A stretch of 47,695 nucleotides of DNA from positions 1 to 47,695 of the forward strand of contig JAAYXC010000076.1 of NCBI GenBank assembly GCA_012516115.1, given 5' to 3'. Below the pieces are notes generated by a model. It searched no databases and was not told the DNA's origin. It worked only from the letters and a program-made list of their open reading frames with translations. The stretch comes from Bacillota bacterium (lineage in GTDB: Bacteria > Bacillota > UBA4882 > JAAYXC01). Positions 1 to 6,905 of this stretch are shown here, piece by piece. Numbering within the stretch: the stretch's first letter is position 1; each line of letters begins with the position of its first letter. The translations under genes and the position numbers were made by a program.

Positions 1-188
1 ATTATAGATATTATTAAAAATTTGTCTCATTTAAAATCATAATTACCCTGCTACAGATGCATTTAATATTCTAGAATAAACAAATTTATGATACTGAATA
101 ATTTAGCATAAAACACTCGGTTCATGTGAAAAATTTGTTTTCATGTATTAATCCGTATTCTATACCATTTTAATCTAAGGTGATCGCC

Positions 189-2978
189 ATGCTCGTCGAC
201 AACCCCATCCTCAATTCTCCATTTGAAGAACCCACTCGCTACTGGGATTATCACGAAGGCCAGCCGGTAATAGTCGAAGGCCGCCGGCCGGCCGGGTACT
301 ACCTGCGCCCCCGCACGCGTGGCGCGCAGGTCTCGATGTTCGAAGAAGAGTTCGTCCCCCTGGAACCGGTGAACACCATCCGCGCGCGGGTGAAGGTCTG
401 GCGCGAGCGCGGCTATCCGGGGGTCACCCCCCTTACCCGGCAGCTCTTGCACCACTGGAACGACCCCGGCCGCGAACGAAGGCTCTTCTTCTGCCAGCGG
501 GAGGCGGCGGAGACTTTGATCTGGCTTGTGGAGGCTTCGCCCGCCGAGAAGCAGGGGATCGTCATCCCCAAAGACAACGGCCTGGTGCGTTACGCCTGCA
601 AGATGGCGACCGGATCCGGGAAGACCGTGGTCATGGGGATGGTCATCGCCTGGCAGGTCATGAACAAACTGGCGAACCCCCAGGACCGCCGCTTCTCCGA
701 CGCCGTGCTCCTCGTCTGCCCGAACCTCACCGTACGGGAGCGCCTGGAGGTCCTCCTCCCCTGGCGGCCCGACAACTACTACGAGCGGTTCGACCTCATC
801 CCCCGCGGCATGCTGGAACGCCTCCAGCAGGGGAAGTTCCAGATCACCAACTGGCATCTCTTCCAGCCCAAGGACGACTCGCGCTCCCGCAGCGTGGTCC
901 AGCGCGGGGTGGAGGGCGACGCCGCCTTCTGCCGCCGCGTGCTGAAGGAGTTGGGGAGCAAAGGGAACATACTGGTCATCAACGACGAGGCCCACCACGC
1001 CTACCGGCCGGCCCCACTCGCCGAGGAGCTGCGGCAGACGCTCGCGGATGAAGAGATCGCCGAGCGCGAGGAAGCCACCGTCTGGGTGAGCGGGCTCGAC
1101 AAGATCCAGGCCGTGCGCGGGATCAACTTCTGCGCCGACTTCTCCGCCACGCCCTTTTACATCAAGGGCTCCGGCTACGAAGAAGGCGCGCCCTTCCCAT
1201 GGGTGGTCTCGGACTTTGGGCTCGTCGACGCCATCGAGTCCGGCATCGTCAAGGTCCCGCGCGTGCCGGTGGACGACAACACCGGCGCCCTGATCCCCCG
1301 TTACTTCCGGTTATGGGAGTACATCAACGGGCAGCTCTCCGCTTCCGAGCGGCAGACCGCGCGCCGCCGGGCCAAGCCCGAGGCCGTCCTGCGCGAGGCC
1401 GAAGGAGCCCTGGCCACCTTGGCCTCCGAGTGGGAGAAGACCTTCGCGGCCTTTAGGGAGGCCGGCTCGCCCGTCCCGCCCGTCCTCATCGTGGTCTGCG
1501 ACAATACCGATCTTGCCAAACTGGTCTATGAACACATCAGTCGGGGCGAGGTAATCCACGAATTGGTGAATACCGACGGCCGGCAGGTCACCTTCCGCAT
1601 CGACAGCAAACTCCTTGCCGAAGCGGAAGCCGCCCTGGAGGGCGAGACGAAGGGGGAGGCCGCCGAGCGGCTGAGAAAGACGGTCGACACCATCGGCAAG
1701 CTTGCATGGGAAGGGGAGGGCGACCCGCCGGGCAAGGACATCCGCTGCGTGGTCTCGGTGGGGATGCTCACCGAGGGCTGGGACGCCCGGAACGTCACCC
1801 AGATCTTAGGGCTGCGGGCCTTCACCTCCCAGCTCCTCTGCGAACAGGTCGTGGGCAGGGGTCTGCGGCGCCTGAACTACGACGATTTCACGGAGCCGGA
1901 GTACGTGGACGTCTACGGCATCCCCTTCGAGGTCATCCCGGTGAAGAAGAAACCGGTGGGCCGGGCCGATGGCCAGCGGGTCTCCACCCTCGTCCGGGCC
2001 CTGCCCGACCGCCGCCACCTAGAGATCACCTTTCCCCGCGTGGAGGGTTATGTCTTCGACGTCAGGAGCCGCCTCCGTCTCAACCTGAAAGCCGTGCCCT
2101 ATCTCCAGATCGATCCTTCGAGCGAACCCACGGAGGTGACCGTCAAGCCGGCCGCCGGGTACCGCATCGGCCGGCCGGACCGCCTCGGCCCGGGCCGGGA
2201 GGTCGTCCACGACCGCAACCCATTCCACCGCGAGAAGAGGCTTCAGGCCAGCGTCTACGAGATCGCCGCCGAGATTACCTGGCGCCTCAAGGAAAAACGG
2301 GAGGAATGGACCGCGCGGCATACGCTCTTTCCCCAGGTCTTAAACTTCGTGTGGGAGTACATCGAGGAACGGGTCGTGGTGGCCGAAGGCGGTTTTCTCG
2401 AAGATATCGCCTTGCTCAAATACAAGCAGCGCATCATCGAACGGCTGCTTGCGGCCATCGAACCGGACACGTTGGGCGGGGAACCGCCGCTTCTGCCGGT
2501 CATCGAACGTTTCCGGCCCACAGGTTCTACCGGGGAGGTGCTCTTTCGCACCAGCCGCCCCACGGTGGGCACGACGAAGAGCCACATCAGCCATGTGGTC
2601 CTGGACGCACCCCAATGGGAGCATAGCGTGGCCTATCAACTGGAGCGGATCCCGGAGGTGATGGCCTATGCCAGAAACGCCCACCTGGACTTCACCATCC
2701 CCTACGAGTGGCAGGGCGTGCGCCACGAGTACCGCCCCGACTATCTCGTCCGCTGGCGGCTTCCGGATGGGGGAGAGGTGAAGGTCATTCTGGAGGTCAA
2801 GGGTTTCGAGACCGAGCAGGACCGCCAGAAGGAGGCCGCGGCGCGGCGGTGGGTGCGGGCGGTGAACCATCACGGCGAATGCGGCCGCTGGGCCTTCACG
2901 GTCTGCCGGGACCCGCAGGGGGTGCGGAAGCAAATCCTGGAGGCGGTTTCGGTATTCATGGTCCCCCCCGCGAGCTGA
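189..2978 (+). CDS. SF2 helicase / PD-(D/E)xK nuclease, type III restriction Res-subunit-like
   Basis: ORF 180..2978. The ATG at 189 lies 4 nt after the SD AAGGTGAT (177-184). Helicase motifs are MATGSGKT (Walker A), NDEAHH (DEAH), FSATP and QVVGRGLRR. The C-terminal 'RPDYLV...VILEVKG' is a PD-(D/E)xK-type nuclease motif as in Res subunits. No mod gene is visible, and the upstream 180 bp is AT-rich non-coding DNA. Confidence 0.8.
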
Positions 2979-3157
2979 CCGCGGCCGTCCGAAACAGCGT
3001 AAGCATCGACTGGTCCTCCCGCGAGAACGTGCGGGCGGGCCTGCGGGTCACTGTGAAGCGGCTCCTGCGCCGGTACGGCTACCCTCCCGAGAAACGCGAC
3101 CAAGCCGCGGATGCCGTGCTCGAACAAGCGGAAGCCATGACGGATGGGGAAAAGTGA
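2975..3157 (+). pseudogene. hsdR: start-less remnant of a type I restriction HsdR C-terminus
   Basis: Only the last ~60 codons of ORF 2708..3157 look protein-like: '[53 protein letters not shown]'. This resembles the conserved extreme C-terminus of HsdR (..DW..RE.VRA.LR..VKR.L.KYGYPPD..). There is no start codon and no upstream gene body. It abuts the stop of the Res-like gene. Confidence 0.55.
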
Positions 3158-3296
3158 GTCATAAGGCACGAGGCGCGAGCTATTAGTCAGTAAGGCGATT
3201 GGTCGCGGGTGACGAAGTATCCGAGAATACCGAAGGCGTTCCTGCCTCCCCTCCATGGCCGAGAGACCATCACGCTTTCGTGCGGGTCTTTCCACA

Positions 3297-3305
3297 TGGT
3301 ACAAT
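3297..3305 (+). promoter_or_regulatory. candidate extended -10 element (TGGTACAAT) upstream of the ImmA/DUF4411 pair
   Basis: TGgTACAAT at 3297-3305, ~58 nt upstream of the ATG at 3363. Only a weak -35 is present. An imperfect palindrome, CTCTTtGTATAgACAAGAG (3320-3338), lies between it and the start and could be an operator for the HTH domain. Confidence 0.3.
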
Positions 3306-3362
3306 AACTTTGGTGGATTCTCTTTGTATAGACAAGAGTGATCTCCGAAATGGGGTGAGGCC

Positions 3363-4514
3363 ATGACCCGGGTAGCCGTCAGCGAGTCCGTACTTCGCTG
3401 GGCGCTGGAGCGCTCGGGCAAGGCCGCCGAACTCAAGCAAAAGTTTGCCAAACTCTCCGAATGGCTGGAGGGCATAAGCCAGCCCACGCTGCGGCAGCTC
3501 GAAGACTTGGCGAAGGCCACCGCGACCCCGTTCGGCTATTTCTTCCTCGCCGCGCCGCCGGAGGAACGCCTACCCATCCCCCACTTCCGTACATTGGGCG
3601 ACGAATCCCCGCGGCGGCCCAGTCCCGACCTCCTCGAGACCGTCCAAACGATGGAGCTGCGCCAGGCCTGGATGCGCGAATACCTTATCGAGCAAGGACA
3701 GGAGCCGCTCCCCTTTGTCCGTTCCGCAGGAATCCAGGATGAACCGCGCCAGGTTGCCAAAGAGATAAGGCGCCTCTTAGGCCTCACGGAAACGTGGGCG
3801 GCCGAGGAGCCCACCTGGGAGGCGGCGCGGCGGGAATTAATAAGAAGAATTGAAGACACCGGCATCCTCGTGGTGGTAAACGGCGTCGTCGGTAACAACA
3901 ACCGCCGCAAGCTGGATCCCACCGAGTTCCGCGGCTTCGTGCTCGTGGATGAATATGCTCCGCTCGTCTTCGTCAACGGTGCCGATGGCAAGGCGGCGCA
4001 GATGTTCACGCTGGCGCATGAATTGGCGCACGTGTGGTTCGGGCGTAGCGCCGCGTTCGATTTAAGGGAATTTCGACCCGCCGATGACGCGACCGAACAG
4101 GCCTGTAATCGGGTGGCGGCGGAATTTCTTGTACCGGAGAATGCGCTGCGCGATCTCTGGCCTCGTCTCCGGCGAGTGTCCGAGCCGTTTGAGGAGATCG
4201 CCCGCCATTTTAAAGTGAGCAGACTGGTCGCCCTCCGAAGAGTTTTCGAACTGGACTTGATTACGAACGATCGCTTTTTTGAGTTTTACCGGATCTATCG
4301 GGAGGATGAGCGCCGTAACCCCGAACGTGAACAAGAGGGAGGCAACTTCTACGCCAACCAGAATCTGCGCCTCGGCCGGCGCTTTGCCGAGGCGGTGATC
4401 CGGGCGGCCCGGGAAGGGAGGATTCTTTACCGCGAGGCGTATCGGTTGACGGGGCTTTATGGGAAAGCCTTTGAGAAGTACGCTGAATTTCTTGGCTTAG
4501 GGGCCTCGCCATGA
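3363..4514 (+). CDS. HTH-domain ImmA/IrrE-family (COG2856) zinc metallopeptidase
   Basis: 383 aa. The N-terminal ~70 aa are XRE-like. The zinc motif HELAHVWF (HEXXH) is followed by 'ACNRVAAEFLVPE', typical of ImmA/IrrE peptidases. SD GGGGTGAGG lies before the ATG. Confidence 0.85.
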   Translation: MTRVAVSESVLRWALERSGKAAELKQKFAKLSEWLEGISQPTLRQLEDLAKATATPFGYFFLAAPPEERLPIPHFRTLGDESPRRPSPDLLETVQTMELRQAWMREYLIEQGQEPLPFVRSAGIQDEPRQVAKEIRRLLGLTETWAAEEPTWEAARRELIRRIEDTGILVVVNGVVGNNNRRKLDPTEFRGFVLVDEYAPLVFVNGADGKAAQMFTLAHELAHVWFGRSAAFDLREFRPADDATEQACNRVAAEFLVPENALRDLWPRLRRVSEPFEEIARHFKVSRLVALRRVFELDLITNDRFFEFYRIYREDERRNPEREQEGGNFYANQNLRLGRRFAEAVIRAAREGRILYREAYRLTGLYGKAFEKYAEFLGLGASP

Positions 4515-5008
4515 GTGGGCAGATATATCTACTTGACGCCAATGTGTTCATCGAGGCCGCCCAGGGTTATTATGCTTTCGAACTCGCCCCGGGTTTCTGG
4601 CAGGCCCTGCTTTATCATGCCGTGAATGGACGGATTCAAAGCATCGATCGCGTCAAGGATGAACTACAACGTATCAATGATGAACTCAAGGATTGGGTGA
4701 ATGGTGACTTTCACGTCTTTTTTGTCTCTACCGACCAACCTGATGTTATTGAGGCTTATCGGAAGATCATGGAGTGGGTGGACCGTTCAAGCCAGTTTTT
4801 AGCGGCAGCCAAAGCTGCATTCGCCAAGGACGCGGATGGATGGCTGGTCGCGTATGCGATGGCCAAGAGCTGCGTGGTAGTTACACACGAACAATTTTCC
4901 CCTGAAACAAAAAGGAGGGTCCCTATTCCGAATATGTGCAAAGCATTTGGTGTACCGTACGTTAACACATTTCAGATGCTTCGCGATCTGGGTGTAAAGC
5001 TCCGATAG
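4511..5008 (+). CDS. DUF4411-like (PIN-like fold) protein
   Basis: 165 aa. The N-terminus 'IYLLDANVFIEAAQGYY' matches the DUF4411/PIN-like acidic first strand. Its start overlaps the ImmA stop (ATGA at 4511-4514), which implies translational coupling. Confidence 0.7.
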   Translation: MSGQIYLLDANVFIEAAQGYYAFELAPGFWQALLYHAVNGRIQSIDRVKDELQRINDELKDWVNGDFHVFFVSTDQPDVIEAYRKIMEWVDRSSQFLAAAKAAFAKDADGWLVAYAMAKSCVVVTHEQFSPETKRRVPIPNMCKAFGVPYVNTFQMLRDLGVKLR

Positions 5009-5060
5009 AGGGGAAAATCCGCATCGCATACGCTCCCGCTCCCCATTCTTCGCCCGGATC

Positions 5061-5109
5061 CCCTCCCCTCTCCCCTCGGGAGAAAGGCCGGGGGTGAGGG
5101 AAATCCCCG
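5061..5109. repeat. GGGGTGAG-type palindromic intergenic repeat, copy 1
   Basis: CCCTCCCCTCTCCCCTCGGGAGAAAGGCCGGGGGTGAGGGAAATCCCCG. It has an inner hairpin TCTCCC/GGGAGA. The 19-mer GGGGTGAGGGAAATCCCCG (5091-5109) is identical to 6330-6348. Confidence 0.65.
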
Positions 5110-5130
5110 GCCGGAAAGGTGGTGACCCCT

Positions 5131-6120
5131 TTGTCCTTCCGCTTCCGCAAGAGCATCCGGATCGCCAAGGGCGTGCGCCTCAACCTGAGCAAGGGCGGAG
5201 TCGGCCTGAGCATCGGCGGCAAAGGCCTCCGCGTGGGCGTCGGTCCCCGCGGCGTTTATACCTCGGCCGGCATCCCCGGCACGGGACTTTATTCCCTCAA
5301 CTACCTCGGAAAAGGAGAAAGGCGAGGCGCGGTTCGGAGGGTTTCCGAAGAAGCCTCCGGCCCCGGCGGCCGAAACATCGAGCTGCCGCCGGAATTGGCC
5401 CCAAGCTCCGCCTCCACCGCCTTGGGCTGCCTGTGGTTTCTCGTTTCCTTGGTTCTTCTTTTCGTCAATTTGCCCCTGGGCGTGCTGGCGTTTATCGCCC
5501 AGATAGCCTGGGCGATCAAATCGGTCAATTCTCCCACCGGTAGGGCGAAGGAGTATTTCCGGCAAGGACAAAGGGCGCTTCAGGGCGGCGAATGGAAAAA
5601 GGCCCTGGAATCATTTTTACGAGTCTTGGAATTCAAACCGGATATCCCTTCCGTCCATCGTACCGTGGCCTTTCTCTATCTAAGGTTGGATAAACCGGAA
5701 GAATCTCTCGGCTATTTCACCAAGTATCTGGACGTTCATCCGGAAGACATTCCGGCCCGACTGGGCTATGCCCTGGCCCTGGAACGTACCGGTAACTACC
5801 GGAAAGCCATCGAAGTCCTGCAAAACCTCCCGCCGGAAACAAGGCAAGAATTACCGGTGATCAATATCCTGGCCCATGCCTTCCTCGGTCTGGGCCGGCC
5901 CGAATTGGCCCTGGAGGTACTGGAGAAAGGTCCCCTCCGCAGCCGGAGGGCAATGGATGAAGACATGAAGCTTTTTCGCTATTTATTGGGTTTGACCTAT
6001 AAAGAACTCGGGGAGCCTAAAAAGGCCTTGAAACAATTTCAAAAGATCTATGTCGAAGACGCCGATTACGAAAACGTCAAAGACATTTTACGCGAATTGG
6101 ACCCTTCGTTTGAAGGATAA
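5131..6120 (+). CDS. DUF4236-domain / transmembrane / TPR-repeat protein
   Basis: ORF 5119..6120. The TTG at 5131 follows the SD AAAGGTGGTGA and gives 'SFRFRKSIRIAKGVRLNLSKGGVGLSIGG', the typical DUF4236 N-terminus. A hydrophobic segment 'LGCLWFLVSLVLLFVNLPLGVLAFIAQIAWAI' follows, and then TPR-like repeats run to the C-terminus. Confidence 0.7.
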   Translation: MSFRFRKSIRIAKGVRLNLSKGGVGLSIGGKGLRVGVGPRGVYTSAGIPGTGLYSLNYLGKGERRGAVRRVSEEASGPGGRNIELPPELAPSSASTALGCLWFLVSLVLLFVNLPLGVLAFIAQIAWAIKSVNSPTGRAKEYFRQGQRALQGGEWKKALESFLRVLEFKPDIPSVHRTVAFLYLRLDKPEESLGYFTKYLDVHPEDIPARLGYALALERTGNYRKAIEVLQNLPPETRQELPVINILAHAFLGLGRPELALEVLEKGPLRSRRAMDEDMKLFRYLLGLTYKELGEPKKALKQFQKIYVEDADYENVKDILRELDPSFEG

Positions 6121-6307: not shown

Positions 6308-6348
6308 GCCCCTCGGGAGAGGGGATTAAGGGGTGAGGGAAATCCCCG
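6308..6348. repeat. GGGGTGAG-type palindromic repeat, copy 2
   Basis: GCCCCTCGGGAGAGGGGATTAAGGGGTGAGGGAAATCCCCG. It shares CCTCGGGAGA and the 19-mer with copy 1. Confidence 0.65.
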
Positions 6349-6377: not shown

Positions 6378-6422
6378 CCTCACCCCCTTCCCCCCTCGGG
6401 ACAGGAGTCAGGGGCGGTGGAG
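6378..6422. repeat. GGGGTGAG-type palindromic repeat, copy 3 (degenerate right arm)
   Basis: CCTCACCCCCTTCCCCCCTCGGGACAGGAGTCAGGGGCGGTGGAG. The left arm CCTCACCCC is the reverse complement of GGGGTGAGG. Confidence 0.55.
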
Positions 6423-6807
6423 ATAATCCGTTCCGGCCTATCAAGGCGTTTGAACCTGAACAGGGCTGACGGCTGAGCATCGATTCCTATTTCGGGTTCC
6501 AATTTACCCTTTAAAGTCGTTATATCCTATGCCCTGGACCTAAAGTTGCTCTTCCATATTTGAGGGCCATTAGGTTGATCGTAGAAGAATTGCTTGATAA
6601 GGATGCTTCCTTTACCATCCGGAAAGGCCTCAAAGATGACTCTACTTCTGGGTGCCATGTAATTACGGACCTTTTCTGCGTTTCCTTGCACGCATCCGCT
6701 GGTGGTATAAATAGAGCCATAAAATTCATAATACGTACCATCCGTAAATAATAAGAAAAGCTGGGTACCCGGCCATCTTTCCGGGCATTGCCGTCAATTT
6801 TTTCTAA

Positions 6808-6840
6808 GCCCCTCTCCTCGGGAGGGGCCAGGGGTGAGGA
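6808..6840. repeat. GGGGTGAG-type palindromic repeat, copy 4
   Basis: GCCCCTCTCCTCGGGAGGGGCCAGGGGTGAGGA. Confidence 0.6.
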
Positions 6841-6905
6841 AAAGGTTCGGAAACCGCCGCGCGGGGTAAGCTAATAAGGCAATCCCAACACGAGGGCGGA
6901 GATGA

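Follow-up and report, generated by a model that had tools for sequence, protein, structure and literature searches.

The stretch of DNA analysed here, referred to as the window, comprises positions 1 to 47,695 of JAAYXC010000076.1, a contig of a metagenome-assembled genome (MAG) (assembly GCA_012516115.1) from a Bacillota bacterium of the GTDB lineage UBA4882; JAAYXC01. Between its positions 3,363 and 5,008 it carries two open reading frames (ORFs) on the forward strand, the first coding for a helix-turn-helix (HTH)/ImmA-IrrE protein of 383 amino acids with a Peptidase_M78 domain, and the second for a DUF4411 protein of 165 amino acids (Table 1). The junction was read directly in the sequence: the ATG of the second gene is shared with the TGA of the first, which is the geometry expected for translational coupling. 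Both ORFs and their overlap lie exactly where a preliminary description, made from the sequence letters, had placed them, and the motifs it had pointed out are also present, namely HELAH and the box AAEFLVPE (residues 252–259) in the upstream protein, and IYLLDANVFIEA at residues 5–16 of the downstream one. The pair is a real and intact two-gene toxin–antitoxin (TA) module of an already known and widespread family, with the HTH/M78 protein as the antitoxin and the DUF4411 protein as the toxin.

The toxin matched the Pfam family DUF4411 (PF14367) over its full length with E = 2.4e-54 (183.9 bits, cut-off 23.5), and the antitoxin matched Peptidase_M78 with E = 1.1e-17 (64.5 bits, cut-off 22). 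Both domain assignments of the preliminary description were thus right, with scores far above the curated cut-offs. Residues 5–154 of the toxin also matched chain D of the PDB entry 9vzy ('DUF4411 family protein') with E = 7.4e-10, and with E = 3e-15 when a family profile was used. The entries 9VZY and 9VZZ are structures of Mycobacterium tuberculosis VapBC52, formed by the antitoxin Rv2515c (VapB52) and the toxin Rv2514c (VapC52), a tRNase with a PIN fold (Singh et al., NAR 2026, PMC13273310). The identity between the window toxin and VapC52 is 24%. In an alignment of 48 toxin homologues, D9, D46, E51, D109 and E127 are invariant, and the PIN acidic tetrad D9, E51, D109 and E127 is retained in the window protein. 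D9 aligns with D6 of VapC52, whose exchange for alanine (D6A) gives an inactive toxin (Singh et al., NAR 2026, PMC13273310). The AlphaFold2 (AF2) model of the toxin has a mean predicted local distance difference test score (pLDDT) of 92.3 and a predicted template modelling (TM) score of 0.89, and its top Foldseek matches are the FitB and VapC PIN toxins (probability 1.0, TM score 0.55–0.70). The predicted fold is therefore nuclease-like, as had been suspected from the N-terminus.

The antitoxin is related to the partner chain of the same structure. Its residues 6–351 matched 9vzy_A ('HTH cro/C1-type domain-containing protein') with E = 2.8e-20, and a profile alignment covered residues 6–352 against 2–362 of that chain (E = 3.4e-25), leaving 31 residues beyond it in both proteins; the identity to VapB52 is 28%. 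VapB52 is built from three domains: an HTH-like N-terminal one (NTD), a middle one (MD) that combines the HEXXH zinc peptidase with a helical HTH motif, and a C-terminal one of four helices (CTD) (PMC13273310). The window antitoxin is collinear with it, as its NTD is HTH-like, its MD is an M78 peptidase and its CTD is helical; the published domain boundaries of VapB52 were placed on the PDB numbering by inference. As can be observed in its AF2 model (pLDDT 86.5), a five-helix NTD is followed by a low-confidence linker (residues 71–87) and, after the peptidase core, by a four-helix CTD (residues 329–376). Foldseek matched the core to IrrE, CapP, PprI and PrpR, the same structural relatives that are given for VapB52 (PMC13273310), and the PprI structure with single-stranded DNA (ssDNA), 8SLN, is among the listed matches. 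The N-terminus had been described as XRE-like. The five-helix domain, the weak Foldseek match to the DNA-binding domain of ImmR and the homology to the NTD of VapB52 support this indirectly; in the sequence it is only weakly visible, as HTH_3 stayed below threshold (E = 0.022, 15.2 bits against a cut-off of 23 bits). The VapB52 chain was named 'HTH cro/C1-type' by its depositors, and its NTD was likened to XRE-type DNA binders (Singh et al., NAR 2026, PMC13273310).

The residues of the zinc site and of the linker motif were compared in 41 antitoxin homologues. All of them have H219, E220, H223 and E245, and for F75 and R76 the conservation is 90% or more. H219, H223 and E245 align with H216, H220 and E245 of VapB52, so that the HEXXH plus Glu zinc site is present, and F75–R76, located in the low-pLDDT linker between NTD and MD, aligns with F75–R76 of VapB52, the probable cleavage site in the corresponding linker (PMC13273310). 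The exception is C229, the 'cysteine switch' on the zinc of VapB52 (PMC13273310), which aligns with F232 of the window protein, a Phe that is invariant in the window subfamily; the cysteine-switch residue is thus absent. Since it is replaced by an invariant Phe, autoinhibition by cysteine-switch gating and activation by ssDNA cannot be identical to those of VapB52. C248 belongs to the general M78 motif E-x-x-C-N, which is also found in IrrE.

In VapBC52, one antitoxin sits on a toxin dimer (VapB52:VapC52 1:2); binding requires the NTD, and the CTD blocks access to the active site. This direct and stoichiometric neutralization through the NTD was demonstrated by the crystal complex, isothermal titration calorimetry (ITC) and pull-downs, and ssDNA was found to induce a HEXXH-dependent self-cleavage of VapB52 in which the NTD is released (PMC13273310). 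The window pair shares with VapBC52 the gene order, the two-gene architecture, a DUF4411-type PIN protein with aligned acids (D9 for D6), and an antitoxin with collinear NTD, M78/HEXXH domain and CTD that keeps the zinc ligands (H-E-x-x-H + E) and the F75–R76 pair. It differs, apart from the Phe in place of C229, in that its subfamily is spread over many non-actinobacterial phyla and archaea, often inside type I restriction-modification (R-M) operons. The preliminary description had held that DUF4411 had no experimentally defined role, a statement superseded by the biochemical characterization of VapC52, a DUF4411 protein (PDB 9VZY/9VZZ), in 2026.

Relatives of the pair were collected by scanning one genome per GTDB species, which gave 570 loci; the family counts given here refer to the best 80 of these 570. 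They come from Bacillota, Planctomycetota, Nitrospirota, Bacteroidota, Chloroflexota, Acidobacteriota, Proteobacteria and archaea (Methanothrix, Methanoregula and Nitrosopumilus). An ImmA-type gene lies directly 5' of the DUF4411 gene, on the same strand, in 80/80 loci. Where the upstream gene is full-length, the junction falls between −14 and +5 bp in 68 out of 69 loci, most commonly as a 4-bp NTGA overlap (35 loci). No third gene is conserved in the 80 loci, as clustering of the larger flanking ORFs gave no recurrent third family, and no small ORF (40–160 amino acids) is conserved within 700 bp on either side. Both proteins have full-length PHROG families, and the toxin was found on 41 plasmids and in one distant phage record with 29% identity (phage collection search).

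These data bear on the possibility that the M78 protein is an anti-repressor of the ImmA/ImmR or IrrE/DdrO type, acting on either a mobile element or a regulon for DNA damage, with DUF4411 as a passenger or accessory nuclease. The M78 homology to IrrE/PprI and the match to a PHROG 'transcriptional regulator' family would fit such a role, but no separate XRE repressor or other conserved third gene occurs in the 80 loci, the DUF4411 gene is linked in all of them with an overlapping junction, the pair has neither integrase nor phage genes next to it in the window, and just 2 Resolvase and 2 Recombinase matches were found among 132 adjacent ORFs. This explanation is hardly credible. The same applies to the picture of a protease that cuts a partner regulator, which the preliminary description had drawn from ImmA/ImmR: there is no gene for a separate repressor, and the protease of VapB52 cuts itself. 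CapP/CapH, the regulator of CBASS (signalling against phages that is based on cyclic oligonucleotides), and IrrE/PprI-DdrO resemble the window antitoxin in the M78 plus HTH-type core fold and in having a protease activated by ssDNA or DNA damage, and differ from it in the same respect, their proteases cleaving a separate repressor and thereby switching on transcription.

The sequence immediately upstream of the antitoxin gene is part of the module. The segment of about 125 bp before the antitoxin ATG is nearly invariant in four relatives (L081, L083, L084 and L085). In L085, whose two proteins are 85% and 79% identical to those of the window and whose genes are 78–94% identical, the leader is still nearly invariant while the upstream sequence beyond it is unrelated. 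At the other end, homology to the closest relatives stops just past the toxin stop codon. The module boundaries are therefore fixed by the conserved leader, the unrelated flanks and the end of homology after the toxin gene. As the leader is more conserved than the coding DNA, its sequence implies a constrained, putatively regulatory element. By eye, and with the help of conservation, an extended −10-like element and an imperfect palindrome were recognized in it as candidate promoter and operator, followed by a Shine–Dalgarno (SD)-like stretch (Table 1). A scan of positions 2900–5300 for consensus sigma-70 promoters and terminators gave no promoter and one unconvincing intragenic terminator-like site, and an inverted-repeat search of 3150–3370 gave nothing.

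A leader of this kind would also be expected if the module worked by transcriptional derepression, as a 'three-component' system. The operon would be kept silent by the HTH domain until, under stress, the fused protease degrades that domain, and the main outcome would be induced transcription of the PIN gene and not its release from a pre-formed protein complex. Such a scheme was proposed by Makarova et al. (2009) and by Matelska et al. (2017), and it would suit both the HTH-like N-terminal domain and the position of the palindrome, between the putative −10 element and the SD, in a leader more conserved than the coding sequence. Nevertheless, the stop/start overlap means that toxin and antitoxin are produced from one mRNA, so derepression alone would raise both proteins, and for VapBC52 the neutralization was seen to be direct and stoichiometric in the crystal complex, by ITC and in pull-downs, the NTD being used to bind the toxin. 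Derepression as the main mechanism is considered very unlikely; autoregulation may well coexist with direct neutralization.

The two genes differ in composition, with a GC content of 0.49 (0.52 at third codon positions, GC3) for the toxin gene and 0.61 (GC3 0.72) for the antitoxin gene. This gap of 0.117 exceeds that in all 70 other family loci (mean 0.039, standard deviation 0.021). A recent toxin swap was considered as its origin and rejected, since the sliding-window identity to L081 and L085 showed no breakpoint and both relatives have the same gap. The gap is a property of the small clade formed with L081 and L085.

Table 1. Features of the toxin–antitoxin locus in the window (nucleotide positions unless residues are stated).
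Feature	Position	Strand	Description or basis
Restriction endonuclease of the BPTD_3080 family, intact	180..2978	+	932 aa, ResIII helicase-type; NCBIfam NF046055, Pfam ResIII
Type I hsdR 3' remnant	2981..3157	+	Last ~53 codons of T1RH-like_C plus stop; PF11867
Conserved module leader, about 125 bp	3240..3362	+	Near-identity among L081, L083, L084, L085
Extended −10-like element TGGTACAAT	3297-3305	+	By eye and conservation; candidate promoter
Imperfect palindrome CTCTTTGTATAGACAAGAG	3320-3338	+	By eye and conservation; candidate operator
SD-like sequence GGGGTGAGG	3352-3360	+	Inspection
Antitoxin gene	3363..4514	+	Three-domain HTH/ImmA-IrrE (M78) Zn-peptidase, 383 aa, VapB52-like, RmrA-like
Antitoxin N-terminal five-helix domain	about residues 1-62	+	AF2 model
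Antitoxin linker with F75–R76	3585-3590	+	Alignment to VapB52, conservation
Antitoxin HEXXH (H219, E220, H223)	4017-4031	+	HELAH at residues 219-223
Antitoxin third Zn ligand E245	4095-4097	+	Invariant in homologues
Antitoxin four-helix C-terminal domain	4344-4511 (about residues 328-383)	+	AF2 model
Stop/start overlap	4511..4514	+	ATGA
Toxin gene	4511..5008	+	DUF4411 PIN-like nuclease, 165 aa, VapC52-like
Toxin predicted catalytic acids	D9 4535-4537, E51 4661-4663, D109 4835-4837, E127 4889-4891	+	Conservation

Since the preliminary description had proposed the pair as a novel, uncharacterised system, it was compared with what has been published on similar arrangements. Fusions of COG2856 and Xre domains, including Rv2515c by name, were found in operons with PIN toxins by Makarova et al. 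(2009), and DUF4411.1 downstream of fused HTH-DUF955 genes was predicted to be a toxin by Matelska et al. (2017). The architecture of these 'three-component' TA systems, HTH-DUF955(COG2856) plus DUF4411.1, that is, a toxin with a protease/regulator, is identical to that of the window pair. The difference is that those works are computational only and favoured cleavage of the HTH protein leading to transcriptional activation. With the pairing predicted in 2009, extended to DUF4411 in 2017 and solved structurally as a DUF4411/HTH-M78 pair in 2026 (9VZY/9VZZ), the claim of novelty had to be abandoned.

RosmerTA (RmrT/RmrA) is a validated defence system with a Zn-peptidase antitoxin (Millman et al. 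2022). ImmA antitoxins form a hub node in NetFlax, where they also pair with PIN-like toxins, and RmrT-D5 of Gordonia phage Kita depolarises membranes and is not a nuclease (Ernits et al. 2023). RosmerTA is a two-gene defence system of TA type, and the window pair resembles it in having two genes and an HTH plus ImmA-type Zn-peptidase antitoxin. In the PADLOC search, 15 RmrA models matched the antitoxin, the best with E = 1.7e-13 (residues 30–310) and together covering residues ~13–318, that is, most of the protein; as these models have no curated threshold, the scores count as moderate only. The difference lies in the toxin, a DUF4411 protein without a match to RmrT or any other PADLOC family, whereas the characterised RmrT acts on membranes. 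The PADLOC rule for Rosmer would probably miss the window locus, whose toxin has no RmrT model. A canonical VapBC system was rejected as well: the toxin fold is VapC-like, but its partner is a three-domain M78 protein of 383 amino acids and not a small antitoxin (about 70–100 amino acids) of the ribbon-helix-helix (RHH), AbrB or Phd type.

From this comparison, the pair is likely to be a horizontally mobile, self-contained type II-like TA or abortive-infection module of the VapBC52 type, and to work in the manner that follows. Both genes would be transcribed from the conserved leader, and translational coupling, as suggested by the overlap and its conservation, would ensure that the toxin is made only together with the antitoxin. 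By homology to 9VZY, the antitoxin most likely keeps the PIN dimer inactive; it would be anchored mainly through its N-terminal HTH-like domain and cover the active site with its four-helix CTD. Stress or infection would provide a signal, most probably ssDNA by analogy with VapB52, CapP and PprI, that would activate the M78 zinc peptidase, and the peptidase would then cut its own exposed NTD–MD linker at or near F75–R76. Detachment of the anchor domain would free the PIN toxin, and this in turn would cleave tRNAs or other RNA, causing growth arrest of the cell or of the infecting phage. The biochemical steps of this scheme would all be carried over from VapBC52, whereas homology, conserved residues, predicted folds, linkage, junctions and context come from the present family. 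The logic of a protease-gated nuclease effector, already put forward in the preliminary description, matches the experiments on the homologous VapBC52.

Several observations weigh against this interpretation. The identity to VapBC52 is only 24–28%, so substrate and trigger may differ, and the change of the cysteine-switch residue to Phe may also mean a trigger other than that of VapB52. Phage protection by VapBC52 was obtained only with VapC52 over-expressed alone, and co-expression of VapB52 and VapC52 gave none against phage D29 (PMC13273310). Since protection needed the toxin over-expressed alone, phage defence by the native module of the HTH-M78 + DUF4411 family is unproven. In addition, no PADLOC family, RmrT or other, matched the 165-amino-acid toxin at E <= 0.01 or at E <= 10, the promoter and operator of the leader are candidates that rest on inspection and conservation, and many family members are located among housekeeping genes, including those of purine biosynthesis.

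The immediate surroundings of the pair in the window were also studied. The endonuclease upstream matched the BPTD_3080-family model NF046055 with 1002 bits against a cut-off of 800, and the hsdR remnant, which starts 3 nt past its stop codon, matched positions 275–327 of the 329 of PF11867 (E = 1.1e-21). The nearest relative, L081, has the same arrangement, with the remnant called as a gene of 42 amino acids (L081 1544-1672), and, since it comes from an independent metagenome, the remnant is not an assembly artefact. This arrangement suggests that the BPTD_3080-family gene took the place of a type I system long ago, while the TA pair stayed where it was. Downstream of the pair there is a gene with DUF4236 and tetratricopeptide repeats (TPR), and then housekeeping genes. 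The pair had been described as lying between restriction genes and remnants, which is correct for the upstream side, with its endonuclease and hsdR remnant, but not for the downstream one.

The neighbourhood was also examined across genomes. Among the 132 immediately adjacent ORFs there are 8 HsdR, 6 HsdS and 2 Eco57I/MmeI-type enzymes; this pooled scan omitted the last four entries and the very long ORFs of L064 (a DEAD/MZB helicase) and L080 (HsdR), and so slightly under-estimates the defence content. Clustering of all 735 flanking ORFs gave HsdR, HsdM and HsdS as the sole specific recurrent families. R-M ORFs account for 28/368 at gene rank <= 3 and for 4/367 beyond it (Fisher p = 1.3e-5), a comparison whose control is internal (distance within ±10 kb), with non-independent ORFs and many short contigs. 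The association of the family with R-M genes across genomes is real and localised. An R-M gene, of type I or type IIG, lies within the fetched flanks in 14/80 loci, and 66/80 are outside R-M operons. These genes typically run hsdM-hsdS-[pair]-hsdR in one direction; the hsdS-[pair]-hsdR layout was found in L002, L020, L035, L042, L047 and L067, and partially in 4 more, while the window keeps just the upstream 3' remnant of hsdR. In four neighbourhoods annotated with Pfam, the pair was located in a defence island (L087), in a mobile-element-like region (L088) and among housekeeping genes (L086 and L089). The pair is therefore a mobile cassette whose association with R-M loci is real but limited to a minority of cases.

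Both proteins are about 55–69% identical across Bacillota, Planctomycetota, Nitrospirota and methanogenic or ammonia-oxidising archaea (L001–L080), and members from Bacillota and from methanogenic archaea share 60–69% identity. For a TA pair, such a cross-domain identity is unusually high; it points to frequent inter-domain transfer.

Mobility of this kind could also be that of a purely selfish addiction or stabilisation cassette, which would maintain itself and its carrier locus, plasmid or island by post-segregational killing, with no phage sensing. The pair is indeed free-standing and mobile with sharp boundaries, it appears on 41 plasmids and in unrelated contexts that include purine-biosynthesis and other housekeeping neighbourhoods, its cross-domain identity implies frequent transfer, and the native VapBC52 pair gave no protection against phage D29. 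TA modules that stabilise defence islands are also discussed by Matelska et al. (2017). On the other hand, a cassette serving plain addiction would have no need of an elaborate protease domain that responds to signals and whose catalytic residues are invariant, related RosmerTA systems with Zn-peptidase antitoxins protect against phages, and the linkage to R-M is strongly localised and operon-internal. A purely selfish cassette is therefore regarded as rather unlikely, although it is compatible with a VapBC52-type module and the two are not mutually exclusive.

The position inside type I operons and the predicted output of the module are reminiscent of a known tRNA-cutting toxin. The PrrC anticodon nuclease of the Escherichia coli prr locus is a latent toxin whose gene lies within a type I R-M operon, with hsdS on one side and hsdR on the other, and it is silenced by the R-M enzyme itself. 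The layout hsdM-hsdS-[pair]-hsdR, in at least 6/80 loci, puts the pair in the same position as PrrC. However, there is no homology to PrrC, the Pfam matches being limited to DUF4411 in the toxin and Peptidase_M78 in its partner, and the window module has its own antitoxin. Links of PIN-like toxins to type I R-M operons are treated in general terms by Matelska et al. (2017), with DUF4411 not singled out in the available part of that article.

A further idea is that the subfamily lacking the cysteine switch acts as a specialised 'guard' of R-M, inserted co-directionally between hsdS and hsdR as PrrC is in E. coli, and firing its tRNase when the neighbouring R-M enzyme is defeated or when restriction yields ssDNA or DNA ends. 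This is a speculative proposal that we regard as decidedly unlikely; if true, a second, abortive defence layer would be coupled to the first, with trigger and regulation unlike those of VapB52. About 1/6 of the family loci lie within R-M loci of type I or type IIG, which gives a testable hint that restriction and a tRNase-based abortive-infection module may be functionally coupled.

These results are mainly of use for annotation. The proper label for the locus is that of a VapBC52-like or Rosmer-like module with an HTH-M78 antitoxin and a DUF4411 PIN toxin, and not that of a candidate for a new defence system. Its subfamily is unusually conserved and mobile, with about 60–69% identity among Bacillota, Planctomycetota, Nitrospirota and methanogenic archaea, and it has no cysteine switch of the type that has been proposed as the gate of the proteases of VapB52 and CapP, so that its mode of activation may differ.

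Other proteins with unusual domain combinations were observed next to members of the family. The HsdM of the pair-carrying type I operon in L002 (4251-6638) is fused to a C-terminal GIY-YIG nuclease (N6_Mtase + HsdM_N + GIY-YIG). A Macro-domain protein lies directly 5' of the pair in L020 (7442-8554), and a DEAD helicase of 1684 amino acids with an MrfA Zn-binding (MZB/DUF1998) domain lies directly 3' of it in L064 (10500-15551). L087 (4226-7757) contains a split HsdR, the long part with an SLFN_AlbA_2 domain, followed by HEPN/MNT pairs.

In the window, the gene directly 3' of the pair (5119-6120) codes for a protein with an N-terminal DUF4236 domain and TPR repeats, which gave a weak PADLOC match to CARF1--CARF_HEPN (E = 8e-4), probably driven by the repeats. 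G-rich repeats such as GGGGTGAGGGAAATCCCCG were considered as the mobile-element boundary of the pair and rejected, as they flank the DUF4236-TPR gene instead. These intergenic repeats are G/C-rich and resemble repetitive extragenic palindromic (REP) elements, and are located at 5065-5109, 6309-6348, 6385-6424 and 6809-6843; GGGGTGAGGGAAATCCCCG occurs twice exactly and CCCCTCGGGAG-type motifs occur four times, some of them inverted.

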